Below are positions 3,323-7,186 of a stretch of 10,053 bases of DNA, piece after piece. The position numbers and the translations under genes were made by a program. Positions within the stretch are counted from its first letter, which is position 1. Each line of letters opens with the position of its first letter. Below the pieces are notes generated by a model. The model was not told the origin of the DNA. It searched no databases and saw only the letters and a list, made by a program, of their open reading frames with translations. The stretch is from a virus (lineage: Duplodnaviria > Heunggongvirae > Uroviricota > Caudoviricetes). The stretch lies in the IMG/VR virus record IMGVR_UViG_2740892213_000005, one strand, 5' to 3'.

Positions 3323-3357
3323 ACCGCGTTGTCGGCGGTGCAGATTGATAAAGAGCG
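3323..3357 (-). promoter_or_regulatory. nutR: nutR: boxA CGCTCTTTA (3349-3357) and boxB ACCGCCGACAACGCGGT (3323-3339), P22 type
   Basis: Minus-strand sequence between cro and cII; boxA matches the consensus; boxB matches the P22 nutR boxB as I recall it. Confidence 0.7.
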
Positions 3358-3694: not shown

Positions 3695-4354
3695 ATGAAA
3701 ATGAAATGGTATGAACTGGCTAGATCCAGAATGAAAGAACTCGGCATAACTCAAGAGAAGTTAGCTGAAGAGCTTGGTATGACGCAGGGTGGAATTGGTC
3801 ACTGGTTGCGCGGATCTCGTCATCCATCTCTTGACGAGATTGGTGTGGTGTTTAAATACCTTGGTATTGATAACGTCTCATTCAACCACGACGGTACATT
3901 TTCACCTGTTGGCGAATACTCATCTGCCCCCGTTAAAAAACAATATGAGTACCCTGTTTTTTCTCATGTTCAGGCCGGGATGTTCTCGCCTGAGCTTAGA
4001 ACCTTTACCAAAGGCGATGCGGAGAGATGGGTCAGCACAACCAAAAAAGCCAGTGATTGTGCGTTTTGGCTTGAAGTTGAAGGTAATTCCATGACCGCAC
4101 CAACAGGATCCAAGCCAAGCTTTCCTGACGGGATGTTAATTCTCGTTGACCCTGAGCAGGCTGTTGAGCCAGGTGATTTCTGCATAGCCAGACTTGGTGG
4201 TGACGAGTTTACCTTCAAGAAACTGATCAGGGATAGCGGTCAGGTGTTCCTACAACCACTAAACCCGCAATATCCAATGATCCCATGCAATGATAGCTGT
4301 TCCGTAGTAGGGAAAGTTATCGCCAGCCAGTGGCCTGAAGAGACATTTAGTTAA
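3695..4354 (+). CDS. cI: CI-type prophage repressor (S24 peptidase family)
   Basis: C-terminal roughly 130 aa almost identical to the lambda cI C-terminal domain ([38 protein letters not shown]); N-terminal HTH domain differs. Start at 3695 or 3701; the track ORF begins at 3620. Confidence 0.85.
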
Positions 4355-4479: not shown

Positions 4480-4508
4480 TTGACTCAATAAAGTACACAT
4501 CGTACTAT
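4480..4508 (+). promoter_or_regulatory. pL: -35 TTGACT, 17-bp spacer, -10 TACTAT, with OL dyad AGTACACATCGTACT (4492-4506)
   Basis: Near-consensus sigma70 promoter about 200 nt upstream of N; operator overlaps spacer and -10. Confidence 0.6.
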
Positions 4509-4553
4509 TTAGCCATCAGCAGGAAGCTGGAAGCCAAACGGAACAGATTGGCA

Positions 4554-4588
4554 GGCTCTTTAACTTCGATGGGGCGCTGACAAAGCGC
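4554..4588 (+). promoter_or_regulatory. nutL: nutL: boxA GGCTCTTTAA (4554-4563) and boxB GCGCTGACAAAGCGC (4574-4588), P22 type
   Basis: Lies between pL and N; boxB is a 5-bp stem with GACAA loop, matching the P22 nutL boxB as I recall it. Confidence 0.75.
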
Positions 4589-4707
4589 AAACAGATACCA
4601 AACGAGATGGGTTTGGCGGTGATGTGAATTGCAGCTGCAACGACAGCAACCAGAAGATCAGCACCTGGCGCATCACCACCAAAGCCATTTCACATGAGGA
4701 AAACATC

Positions 4708-5016
4708 ATGACGGTAATCGTGTACGGAAAATCAACATTTGCAGGAAATGCCAAAACTCGCCGTCATGAGCGGCGCAGAAAGCTGGCTATCGAGCGTGAT
4801 TCCATCTGCAACATCATCGATTCGATCTTCGGCACAGACAGTGAGGAAGCTGTTCAGGAAGAACCGAGAAAGCGTTTAAGTCTTTCTGAAAAAGCAATAT
4901 CACTCGGCATCATCAGTAAATCAAATACAGATGCGAATGGCGGAAGCGTTTGTTTGCCTGAAGTTGCACTGTATGCTGCTGGTTACAGGTCAATGAAATC
5001 AATTACGGCGAGATAG
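4708..5016 (+). CDS. N: N-type transcription antiterminator (P22 gene 24-like)
   Basis: Contains the arginine-rich motif GNAKTRRHERRRKLAIER, the P22 N boxB-binding peptide; GAGGA Shine-Dalgarno upstream. The track ORF starts at 4624; the homology start is MTVIVYG. Confidence 0.85.
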   Translation: MTVIVYGKSTFAGNAKTRRHERRRKLAIERDSICNIIDSIFGTDSEEAVQEEPRKRLSLSEKAISLGIISKSNTDANGGSVCLPEVALYAAGYRSMKSITAR

Positions 5017-5018
5017 AA

Positions 5019-5285
5019 ATGACTAGCAAACAAGTATCATATAAATGCTATTGCCCTTTATGTGGAAGAAAATTCAGCGCCAAGGCAGCATGGAAGCATA
5101 TCAATGATTATCATCCAAAAGCATCAGAACGTGAGTTGATGATGATAAGAGATGTAAAACGAGAAAAAATTTCTTTCGCAACAAAGCCACTAAACGCCAA
5201 CAAAAACGCAATATTGTATCAAATGCATCGTTCAAGTGGTCCAGATTATTCTGGAGGGCTTCCATCTCTTGGAAAGAAAAAATAA
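5019..5285 (+). CDS. Small C2H2-type zinc-finger-like protein (88 aa), hypothetical
   Basis: Pattern C-x2-C-x12-H-x4-H (CPLCGRKFSAKAAWKHINDYH); starts 2 nt after the N stop. Confidence 0.6.
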   Translation: MTSKQVSYKCYCPLCGRKFSAKAAWKHINDYHPKASERELMMIRDVKREKISFATKPLNANKNAILYQMHRSSGPDYSGGLPSLGKKK

Positions 5286-5421
5286 CCACGCTCACGCTGG
5301 TTTTTAATGACATAAATAACCGTATTTACTACCGCAAGCCACGCAGTGAAATGGGTGTGACTTGTGTTGGTCGCCAGAAAATGAAATTAGGCAGCAAACC
5401 ACTTATTTGAGAGGAATTAAT

Positions 5422-6045
5422 ATGTCATCAATCCGCTTAACTACGAGAATGAAAGAGGAAATCGCTCGTAACGCTTTAATTAAGTCTGGGGTTTTCACTG
5501 AACTTGAAGAAGTAACAAAGTTAAAGAACCAGCTTGCACTTGACGCCAGAGTTATTGCGTTTGGCGGGAAAAAGAAAACCGAAGAAGTGGACCAGCTGGC
5601 ATCAAAGTTAATGGCTGCAAGTGAGGAACTTCAAAAGCTTGGATGTTCATTTTACTCATGCGATGTCAGTTCAAGTTCGATTTATCTGACTGTATCTGGA
5701 AGAAGGGTTGGCTGGCATTCATACGGAAAAGACGGCAACGGTGAAGATATATTGCTCCCTACCCCCGACAAAGATAAATGCATGTTTGACGCAGAACACA
5801 AAATAACAAAAAGGTTTGATGAAATCTGCGCATTGCAACAAAAACTTGAAGCCAGGAAAAAGGATATCGAATCAAATGTATGGGCTGCTTTGAACTCAGT
5901 CACAACAGTTAAGCGACTTATTGAGGTCTGGCCTGAAAGCAAAGAGTTGCTACCAAAAGAAGCAGATAAAGCAAGTGCAGCACTTCCTGCTTTACGGGTA
6001 GAAGATTTGAATAAGATGATTGGACTTCCTTCCGAGGCCGCATAG
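5422..6045 (+). CDS. Hypothetical protein (207 aa), accessory gene in the pL operon
   Basis: ATG with GAGAGGAA Shine-Dalgarno; the track ORF 5362-6045 is the same frame extended upstream. No family recognised. Confidence 0.65.
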   Translation: MSSIRLTTRMKEEIARNALIKSGVFTELEEVTKLKNQLALDARVIAFGGKKKTEEVDQLASKLMAASEELQKLGCSFYSCDVSSSSIYLTVSGRRVGWHSYGKDGNGEDILLPTPDKDKCMFDAEHKITKRFDEICALQQKLEARKKDIESNVWAALNSVTTVKRLIEVWPESKELLPKEADKASAALPALRVEDLNKMIGLPSEAA

Positions 6046-6217: not shown

Positions 6218-7186
6218 ATGAGTGAAGTAACAGATTTAGTTGTTATTGAAAAAGCAAATGCAATGACTGTATTTCAGTCTGCCGACCAGATTGAAGAAAT
6301 CCTTCAAAAGGTTGAACGTGAAGTTATGTCCTTTGTGCCTGATATCACAACGGCAAAGGGCAGAAAGGAGATCGCTTCTCTGGCGTATAAAGTTGCGCAG
6401 ACGAAAACATATCTCGATGGTCTTGGCAAAGACCTTGTTGCTGAACTGAAGGAAATTCCAAAGCTAATTGATGCTAACCGCAAGACAGTGCGCGATCGCC
6501 TTGATGAACTGAAAACCAAGGCGCGCCAGCCTCTTACTGATTATGAGGAAGAACAGGCGCGGATTAAAGCCGAAGAAGAAGCTAAGGCAGCAGCTGAAGC
6601 TCTCGCAAAGCAAATTGAGTATGACCATGAAATAGCTATTTTGATGGATCGCGAATTTGACCGCCAAAGAGAAGAGGCAAGACTCAAAGCGGAGCAGGAA
6701 AAGCGAGAGCATGAAGAACGATTAAAAAGAGAAGCTAAAGAGAAAGCCAGAGCAGAAGCCGAAGCAAAGGCAAAAGCCGAAATTGAAGCAGCAGCAAGGC
6801 GAGAAGCAGAAGCTAAGGCCGCAGCGGAACGTGCAGAGCGTGAACGCATTGAAGCCGAGCAACGAGCACAGCGCGAAGCAAAAGAGGCAGCAGAACGAGC
6901 TGAAAGAGAAAAGCAGGCAGCAATTGAAGCAGAACGCAGAAAAGCACATGAGGAGGCTGAACGAATCCGTCGCGAGGCTGAAGCAAAAGAGCAAGCCAGA
7001 ATAGCAGAAGAAAAAAGAATCAAGGACGAAGAAGAGCGTAGAGCAAAGGATAAAGCTCACCGGAAAGAAGTAAATAACAAAATACTTGCTGACCTTATCA
7101 AGGTTGGCGCATCAGAAGATGTTGCTAAAAATATCATAACAGCCATCGTAAAAGGCGAAGTATTCGCAACAAAAATAACCTACTAA
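6218..7186 (+). CDS. Hypothetical protein (322 aa) with a long E/A/K/R-rich charged helical segment
   Basis: About 100-aa N-terminal region, then a roughly 170-aa highly charged low-complexity stretch (EAEAKAKAEIEAAARREAEAKAAAERAERER...), then a short C-terminal region. GGAGGA Shine-Dalgarno. Confidence 0.75.
   Translation: MSEVTDLVVIEKANAMTVFQSADQIEEILQKVEREVMSFVPDITTAKGRKEIASLAYKVAQTKTYLDGLGKDLVAELKEIPKLIDANRKTVRDRLDELKTKARQPLTDYEEEQARIKAEEEAKAAAEALAKQIEYDHEIAILMDREFDRQREEARLKAEQEKREHEERLKREAKEKARAEAEAKAKAEIEAAARREAEAKAAAERAERERIEAEQRAQREAKEAAERAEREKQAAIEAERRKAHEEAERIRREAEAKEQARIAEEKRIKDEEERRAKDKAHRKEVNNKILADLIKVGASEDVAKNIITAIVKGEVFATKITY

Follow-up and report, generated by a model that had tools for sequence, protein, structure and literature searches.

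A C2H2-like zinc-finger protein encoded directly after the antiterminator gene N of a lambdoid prophage, and its linkage to the N and Nun elongation systems

Described here is a small gene in a stretch of viral DNA of 10,053 nucleotides (IMG/VR record IMGVR_UViG_2740892213_000005; Caudoviricetes), hereafter referred to as the window, which constitutes the early region of a lambdoid prophage. The open reading frame (ORF) of interest follows the gene for the N antiterminator and encodes an 88-residue protein with a C2H2-like zinc finger. N and Nun are textbook cases of RNA-tethered control of transcription elongation, and, to our knowledge, every known member of the N/Nun class binds boxB by means of an arginine-rich peptide. 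The finger module is tied to this elongation machinery by its fusion, in some homologues, to the polymerase-binding end of N, by its obligate adjacency to and co-transfer with N, and by its alternation with Nun-like genes. We tentatively propose, as a reading with somewhat less than an even chance of being correct, that the protein is an elongation factor of the N/Nun class in which a zinc finger takes the place of the arginine-rich motif. Zinc binding, binding to RNA or to the elongation complex, and an effect on termination are all inferred. The fold is known, but neither the family nor its association with N and Nun has been described, and a search of the literature on zinc-finger N-like antiterminators or small C2H2 proteins of phages revealed nothing relevant.

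The finger protein

The original prediction called for a C-x2-C-x12-H-x4-H motif in this ORF. The peptide concerned, CPLCGRKFSAKAAWKHINDYH, is indeed present at residues 12-32, but its spacing had been misjudged. The second cysteine and the first histidine are separated by 11 residues, the x12 pattern fails on the protein, and the motif is in fact C-x2-C-x11-H-x4-H. Taken alone it proves nothing and is weak evidence, given that a loose C2H2 pattern in a stop-free frame occurs in 17% of shuffled 10-kb windows. It is the conservation of the motif residues that places the finger beyond chance. In an alignment of 20 sequences extending down to 23% identity, Cys 12, Pro 13, Cys 15, Phe 19, His 27, Ile 28, His 32, Leu 40, Arg 44, and Asp 45 are invariant. 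All 20 sequences thus retain the two cysteines, the two histidines, and the core aromatic residue four positions after the second cysteine (Phe 19). Cys 10 was considered as a general ligand and rejected, as it is not conserved beyond close relatives.

As predicted by AlphaFold with the alignment, the finger adopts a β-β-α fold of the C2H2 type with strands at residues 9-11 and 18-20 and a helix at residues 24-31. It is followed by a second helix at residues 37-50 (predicted local distance difference test, pLDDT, of 82-85). Structure prediction, which had been suggested as a check, therefore bears out the expected unit. The family profile matches solved C2H2 fingers, including Aart (2.9e-6), 1mey (1.2e-3), and ZFAT (2elo; 1.5e-3). 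Note that the ZFAT alignment, the only printed one to span both histidines, needs a one-residue gap before the first histidine. Pfam finger families score 14-20 bits against gathering cut-offs of 25-27.5 and thus fall below them (zf-C2H2, 14.1 versus 25.2 bits; zf-Di19, 19.6 versus 27.5). The top Foldseek matches are C2H2 and UBZ fingers but are non-significant, the domain being too small for an informative fold search. On the basis of the conserved ligands and the finger profile matches, the proposal of a small zinc-binding, C2H2-like protein is supported as probable, and the protein probably binds zinc.

The second helix carries the family motif AS-[DE]-x-[EQ]-L-x2-IRD-[AV]-[KR]-R. Residues 51-88, which encompass a variable linker and the C-terminal peptide, are predicted with low confidence. 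In the alignment of proteins with this tail, Gly 79, Gly 80, Pro 82, Ser 83, Leu 84, Gly 85, Lys 86, and Lys 87 are invariant; position 81 is Leu, Ile, or Ala, position 78 is Ser or Gln, and position 88 is Lys or Arg. A nearly invariant end on a variable linker is the pattern typical of docking peptides, and for that reason the SGGLPSLGKK(K/R) tail is probably a docking motif. The protein is basic, with a calculated isoelectric point (pI) of 9.9 and 18 lysines and arginines against 6 aspartates and glutamates.

Three architectures are found in the family. In type A the finger is joined to an N-like C-terminal domain (CTD), in type B, to which the window protein belongs, it is joined to the SGGLPSLGKK(K/R) tail, and in the short type it stands alone. 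Type A and type B finger domains share 36-59% identity and are intermingled in a similarity tree. Proteus mirabilis and Arsenophonus each harbor both types.

Single fingers with basic flanks, such as that of GAGA factor, and the prokaryotic Ros/MucR finger are known to bind DNA. The window protein might likewise employ its finger, helix 2, and lysine-rich tail (KKK) to bind phage or host DNA and so repress or activate an early promoter after induction. Its basic character would suit such a role, the PDB profile matches and the top, non-significant Foldseek matches are mostly DNA-binding C2H2 fingers, and a Pantoea homologue is named a "putative Zn-finger protein" by one source. The would-be base-reading positions of helix 1 differ greatly among family members, however, and Ros/MucR is not among the Pfam matches at E values up to 1. 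No repeated operator-like motif was found beyond the immunity operators. Moreover, a DNA-binding regulator leaves unexplained both the obligate coupling to N or Nun and the fusion of the finger to the C-terminus of N. We regard this explanation as unlikely.

Selection on the gene and its distribution

The ORF does lie directly after N, as had been noted, with its ATG 2 nt past the TAG stop codon of N (5014-5016). Its product matches phrog_20899, an uncharacterised family, over residues 1-88 of 88 (2e-64), and distant homologues match the same hidden Markov model (HMM) at 1e-8 to 1e-33. In RefSeq it is labelled a hypothetical protein (WP_130078254.1). Scans of the window protein against Pfam, NCBIfam, and PADLOC gave no match above threshold. 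Comparison with the 75%-identical orthologue P0006 of locus L003 yielded 0.21 nonsynonymous (pN) versus 0.91 synonymous (pS) differences per site. Because the synonymous sites are saturated while the protein remains 75% identical, the ORF is a real gene under strong purifying selection.

A chance ORF with a chance Cys/His pattern can be given virtually no credence. In its favor are the frequency of the bare motif in shuffled windows and the existence of defective or variant copies in a few genomes. In P0003 both cysteines are lost through a compensated double frameshift, the C-termini of P0004 and P0007 are frameshifted, and the copy in L038 (3001-3267) carries a C12F substitution, which leaves C10-x4-C15 as a possible alternative ligand pair. 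It is refuted by the pN and pS values, by ligands that are invariant in homologues down to 23% identity, and by the existence of an independent PHROG family. A four-residue duplication (NAIK) in the linker was observed in P0002 and L039.

The original prediction had named non-conserved Cys/His residues, or an ORF missing or frameshifted in close relatives, as grounds for abandoning it. It withstands both, inasmuch as the ligands are conserved among homologues and the ORF is intact and under selection in relatives, with the caveat that the gene belongs to a cassette that most close relatives, for example Shiga toxin (Stx) phages, do not have. Indeed, the distribution is patchy. The ORF is present in 14 of 5426 complete E. 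coli genomes and in two of 50,697 phage records, one of them full-length. An identical protein is nonetheless encoded on 849 contigs, from E. coli, Salmonella, and the Klebsiella phage phiKp_30. E. coli SMN013SH2 is 100% identical across the 471-bp stretch searched (window 4950-5420). The G+C content of the ORF is 36.7% versus 46.5% for the whole window.

A word-indexed search retrieved close relatives only. An exhaustive HMMER search found short homologues down to ~40% identity together with multi-finger proteins, one with 38 matched stretches. A scan of genome contigs for GG[LAI]PSLGKK gave 35 pattern matches and no relatives.

Linkage to N and Nun-like genes

In all 39 assessable type B loci, which span seven lineages and 38-100% identity, the finger gene is preceded by an N-family or Nun-like ORF that either ends within 34 nt of it or overlaps its start by a few bases. 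The usual gap is 2 nt, as in loci of the window type and the P0006 type. A GCGAG(A/G)-TA(A/G)-NN-ATG junction is common to the other aligned loci with N followed by the finger gene and to the N-Nun locus of E. coli W, and places a Shine-Dalgarno (SD)-like GAGG or GAGA within the last codons of N. The promoter scan detected no separate promoter for the finger gene, which lies in the repressed pL operon.

The same N 3' allele is followed by alternative genes. Present in 47 E. coli genomes, it precedes the finger gene in 14 and a 92-residue Nun-like protein in 33. The latter matches phrog_5632 (3.4e-29) and has an arginine-rich motif and the C-terminus VVNHAHQRNPKKKW. In E. coli W, for which the junction alignment was made, the Nun-like gene follows N across the identical 2-nt gap. 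Such N-Nun tandems occur in the pL operons of the 33 genomes, including L053 (1920-2198; E. coli W) and L054 (UMNK88), unlike the arrangement in HK022, where nun replaces N. One IMG/VR phage contig (L049, 2354-3234) encodes in tandem a near-lambda N of 107 residues, a Nun-like protein ending in KVNHAHQRRPGKKW, and a zinc-finger protein.

Shown in Table 1 are the boundaries of a recombinant cassette that contains both the 3' part of N and the finger gene. In a blastn comparison with the Stx2 phage locus L009, the matches cover window positions 4514-4907 and 5318-5528, whereas the intervening segment is different, the cassette replacing ~50 bp of the N gene of the Stx-phage type. The N protein of Stx2 phages is the same as that of the window in its N-terminal two-thirds and has a lambda-like C-terminus. 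Directly after the cassette lies an untranslated relic of the displaced N end, left behind on insertion. Among the 1412 E. coli genomes matching any part of the 4950-5420 query, positions 5273-5411, which hold the relic, are the sole matching part in those listed that lack the ORF. The N 3' part and the finger gene came to the window jointly, as one cassette. Sequence containing the relic also follows an unrelated 147-residue first pL gene in L010 and L060.

Strict adjacency to N or Nun, translational coupling, and co-transfer with the 3' end of N could also be expected of a chaperone or stabiliser that is produced stoichiometrically with N, binds disordered N or Nun, and guards it from proteolysis or tunes its translation with no contact to RNA or RNA polymerase. 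Yet the finger gene follows N proteins of unrelated C-termini (lambda type by way of Nun in L049, P22/H-19B type elsewhere), and homologues exist where there is no N at all. This role is decidedly improbable.

Homologues in the N slot

The homologues of Proteus, Providencia, Arsenophonus, and Pantoea that lack the tail are encoded by the first gene on the pL side after the repressor, as is the case for P0028 (Proteus) and P0035 (Providencia). No N-family ORF was found in these type A loci, except for one in an adjoining second immunity region of Arsenophonus. At the C-terminus, P0028 (..VLPSMSLYATTHKKNGRVKDVTARC) and P0035 (..LLPNTAIYSVSHSKANKISASW) resemble N (..CLPNVALYSAGYRNSKNVTAR). With an HMM built from 23 non-redundant N tails the two proteins score 11.3 and 13.1 bits, values reached by none of 18000 shuffled decoys, of which the best scored 9.5 bits. 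Pairwise scores of the same C-termini against N lie ~6-8 standard deviations above shuffles. Additionally, Pfam N_peptide matches residues 52-79 of P0035 with an E value of 0.0083, and the full N HMM matches that ORF at 1.3e-3. The corresponding region of H-19B N is the RNA polymerase-binding CTD, which is needed for processive antitermination away from nut (PMC3526286).

The Proteus and Providencia prophages share a conserved hairpin, GAACGNNRCNSTATATYRWCGG (also written GAACGGCGCACUAUAUCGACGG), with a 5-bp stem, two compensatory pairs, and an 8-nt loop, CRSUAUAU. It occurs twice in these prophages, which lack an N gene, in positions like those of nutL and nutR (for locus L011, see Table 1). 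One copy lies 31-52 nt past the end of the -10 hexamer of a pL-like promoter (3798-3826) and the other lies downstream of cro. No boxA was recognised at the hairpin sites of these prophages. In L055 both the leader and the finger gene downstream of it diverge from those of L011, the leader exactly inside the hairpin. Another conserved block, AATG....GA.AG.GGCAA.A.CC, was observed 25-35 nt downstream of the hairpin.

Several loci show further features. In L057 and L058 (3882-5474) and in L020 and L021 (4389-5486), a second immunity region with cro-like and cI-like genes directly follows the finger gene; that of the Arsenophonus loci L057 and L058 carries the N-like ORF. This arrangement suggests tandem or recombined prophage immunity modules. 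The Hendrixvirinae phage Wanchaivirus PDP110P2 (L060, ~2483-2647) encodes a 54-residue finger-only homologue, 60% identical to P0028 over 45 residues, in a gene located right after N-relic sequence and the 147-residue first pL gene.

Ral and the question of anti-restriction

It had been supposed that the ORF occupies the position of ral in lambda. This is not supported. Loci L004-L008 contain N, the orthologue, and a bona fide Ral gene (PF11058) in that order, the last ~290 nt downstream. Since the two genes coexist, the finger gene is not a substitute for ral, and the Pfam scan of the window protein gave no PF11058 match.

A related suggestion, that the protein inhibits a host enzyme or counters restriction, found no positive support. 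In its broader form it would make the finger a scaffold and the tail a plug for a restriction enzyme, nuclease, protease, or other defence component, with the position after N merely reflecting a hot spot. Several observations would suit such an accessory protein: in relatives the stretch from N to cIII holds Ral, SieB, Kil, CIII, and anti-RecBCD genes, the gene is part of a mobile, low-GC cassette found in few E. coli genomes, and docking motifs typically take the form of an invariant end peptide on a disordered linker. The presence of Ral in the same loci speaks against it, however, as does the lack of a match to any anti-defence or defence model, including those of PADLOC and NCBIfam. Given its pI, the protein is not an acidic DNA mimic. 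A hot spot, furthermore, does not predict fusions of the finger to the N-CTD in the N slot, nor does it predict alternation with Nun-like genes over an identical 2-nt junction. An anti-defence role thus seems doubtful. The other function first suggested, that of a DNA/RNA-binding regulator, fits better than an inhibitor. The context suggests, specifically, the N/Nun transcription-elongation system.

Proposed function

The finger ORF is a genuine second gene of the pL/N operon and, in the proposed reading, is translated by coupling to N. The finger and helix 2 together would serve as a targeting module, with the part that the arginine-rich motif plays in N and Nun, and would bind a hairpin in the nascent RNA or a surface of Nus or RNA polymerase. 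The C-terminal peptide would be an effector, or a docking element, that acts on RNA polymerase or a partner. A targeting finger with an effector tail is favored by analogy, in that N and Nun have a common arginine-rich targeting motif and different C-terminal effectors (PMC5386594). Two versions can be envisaged. In the first, which is slightly favored, the protein would be a Nun-like competitor or excluder that shares its targeting module with phages encoding the finger/N-CTD fusion and differs from them in its C-terminus. In the second it would be an auxiliary subunit that helps its own N.

A more specific hypothesis, for which the chances appear low, would make the finger-helix unit of phrog_20899 a second, zinc-dependent RNA-targeting module of N/Nun-type elongation control, alongside the arginine-rich motif. 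Joined to an N-like C-terminus it would give rise to new processive antiterminators in Proteus and Providencia that act at a new hairpin site. Joined to SGGLPSLGKK(K/R) it would yield an anti-antiterminator resembling Nun, which would be expressed alongside N and would block competing phages of the former class.

A number of points weigh against the assignment of the protein to the N/Nun class. That it binds RNA or RNA polymerase is itself something we infer. Pairwise and HMM tests revealed no significant likeness of the type B tail to N C-termini, and the HxHxR..KKW motif of Nun is absent from the window protein. The likeness to the N-CTD is significant in two type A lineages only and is marginal or negative in the others; a profile-profile comparison of type A with N by hhalign produced the expected alignment, but with a non-significant P of 0.07. 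The hairpin pair, too, is seen just in these two lineages, Proteus and Providencia. In L055 the hairpin on the pL side has been swapped and that on the pR side has not. No hairpin of the Proteus type was found in the window with up to three mismatches allowed. Type B is commonest in E. coli and Salmonella, yet type A proteins were not found in these hosts, the only relative without the tail being the finger-only homologue of the Hendrixvirinae phage. Unrelated accessory genes are known to collect at a hot spot just behind N, and adjacency alone could therefore reflect a site of cassette insertion. P22 N functions without a finger protein. The same is true of H-19B N (PMC3526286). HK022 Nun, moreover, is present in lysogens (PMC5386594), unlike the product of a gene in the repressed pL operon.

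If the proposed assignment is correct, the N/Nun paradigm would be extended to a new RNA-recognition module, and the family would supply a pair consisting of a putative antiterminator and a putative competitor. Even if the elongation reading is wrong, the gene is found widely among the early genes of E. coli and Salmonella prophages, as judged from the 849 contigs, including prophages of Shiga-toxin-producing E. coli (STEC).

Layout of the window

On the plus strand, a gene for a repressor of the cI/LexA type (3695-4354) is followed by a terminator, a pL-like promoter (4480-4508), a nutL site of the P22 type, N, and the finger ORF. Beyond these lie genes for an Nmad5-family protein, a coiled-coil protein, an ERF-like protein, a single-stranded DNA-binding protein (SSB), and an exonuclease. 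The minus strand carries genes for a DnaB-type helicase, a replication protein, cII, and cro. The N protein is of the P22/H-19B type, with an arginine-rich motif and the C-terminus CLPEVALYAAGYRSMKSITAR. The promoter scan places nutL downstream of the pL-like promoter. The elements at 4555-4588 are presumably boxA and boxB, as judged from the P22 and lambda nut sites, and we take the minus-strand site to be nutR from its likeness to P22 nutR. Coordinates are collected in Table 1.

Table 1. Positions of the features discussed (window coordinates unless a locus is named)
Feature	Position	Strand	Basis
Zinc-finger ORF, type B architecture; 88 residues plus stop, ATG start	5019..5285	+	ORF list, sequence; phrog_20899
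C2H2-like finger, residues 9-32; predicted ligands Cys 12, Cys 15, His 27, His 32; core Phe 19	5043..5114	+	Invariant columns; AlphaFold pLDDT 83-84; PDB profile matches
Basic helix 2, residues 37-50, ERELMMIRDVKREK	5127..5168	+	Leu 40, Arg 44, Asp 45 invariant; Ile 43, Arg 48 at least 90%; pLDDT 82-85
Variable linker, residues 51-77	5169..5249	+	pLDDT 53-60; low conservation (alignments A1 and A5)
C-terminal peptide SGGLPSLGKKK, residues 78-88	5250..5282	+	Type B alignment A6 and sequences
N antiterminator gene, partner upstream of the finger ORF	4708..5016	+	PF25694 (Pfam N_peptide) 6.5e-37; phrog_271 1.6e-36
Coupling junction: N codons GCG AGA (SD-like GAGA), TAG, 2 nt, ATG	5008..5021	+	Sequence; junction alignment A8
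Recombinant cassette: finger ORF together with the 3' part of N (C-terminus CLP...ITAR)	4908..5317	+	blastn breakpoints versus Stx2 phage locus L009
Untranslated relic of the lambda/Stx-type N C-terminus, NRIYYRKPRSEMGVTCVGRQKMKLGSKPLI (then stop)	5318..5410	+	Translation identical to the end of the intact L009 N
nutL: boxA GCTCTTTAAC 4555-4564; P22-type boxB GCGCTGACAAAGCGC 4574-4588	4555..4588	+	Exact boxB match, sequence, promoter scan
nutR: boxA CGCTCTTTA 3357-3349; boxB CCGCCGACAACGCGG 3338-3324; downstream of cro	3324..3357	-	Minus-strand sequence
nutL-like and nutR-like hairpins of L011	3864-3885; 2562-2583	+; -	Conserved also in L012-L014, L018, L019

Other ORFs of the window were noted. 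A 64-residue ORF on the minus strand (4560-4754) overlaps nutL and the start of N and is probably a spurious call; RefSeq lists a shorter version as the hypothetical protein WP_249823529.1 (L001, 5557-5739). The cysteine-rich, 70-residue ORF at 47-259 on the minus strand corresponds to a "Lar family restriction alleviation protein" of the same prophage in RefSeq and is probably another small zinc-binding protein. On the plus strand, the Nmad5-family protein (5422-6045; PF18757, 1.2e-69) is followed by a 322-residue coiled-coil protein rich in Glu, Lys, and Ala (6218-7186; phrog_1376). An equivalent pair, of 206 and 323 residues, is located downstream of the finger gene region in the Proteus locus L013.

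Comparison with known systems

With classical C2H2 fingers (PF00096, zf-C2H2_4, zf-Di19) the window protein has in common the CxxC...HxxxxH ligands, a phenylalanine four residues after the second cysteine, and a predicted β-hairpin and helix. It differs in its spacing of x11 rather than x12 and does not fit the pattern C-x2-4-C-x12-H-x3-5-H. It is, moreover, a protein of enterobacterial phages in which a single finger is combined with a family-specific basic helix and a docking-type tail.

YacG, a zinc-finger inhibitor of DNA gyrase, likewise combines a small zinc domain with a tail that docks on its target. That protein, however, contains a C4 finger and is acidic, and only chance-level matches (E ~0.1) to the CxxC knuckle of a homologue were observed. 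Lambda Ral (PF11058) is similarly a small protein encoded in the pL operon downstream of N, but it bears no sequence relationship to the finger protein and, where both are encoded, lies downstream of it.

The lambdoid N proteins (P22 gp24 and H-19B N; PF25694, phrog_271) are encoded in the same operon, and they too are small, basic, and largely disordered. The likeness extends to relatives of the finger protein that occupy the N slot, have an N-like RNA polymerase-binding C-terminus, and are accompanied by nut-like hairpins in both early transcripts. The window protein itself lacks an arginine-rich motif and matches neither PF25694 nor phrog_271 at E values up to 1. It scores -1.1 bits on the N C-terminal HMM (p ~0.4), a likeness to the C-terminal RNA polymerase-binding region of the P22/H-19B type (CLPxVALYxAGYR...TAR) being seen only in P0028 and P0035. 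Whereas the type A homologues come first in the pL operon, the window finger gene is second, preceded by a complete N that has nutL and nutR sites of the P22 type.

HK022 Nun and the Nun-like proteins (phrog_5632) are similar in size and charge to the window protein, and Nun-like genes occur in the position of the finger gene, behind the same N allele and across an identical 2-nt junction. The window protein differs in having no arginine-rich motif, no HxHxR..KKW C-terminus, and no phrog_5632 match, such that the slot alone is shared. Because both genes are present in L049, the finger protein is not simply redundant with Nun. The resemblance lies in the proposed logic, whereby a targeting module shared with an antiterminator would be joined to a different C-terminal effector, as it is in Nun (PMC5386594).

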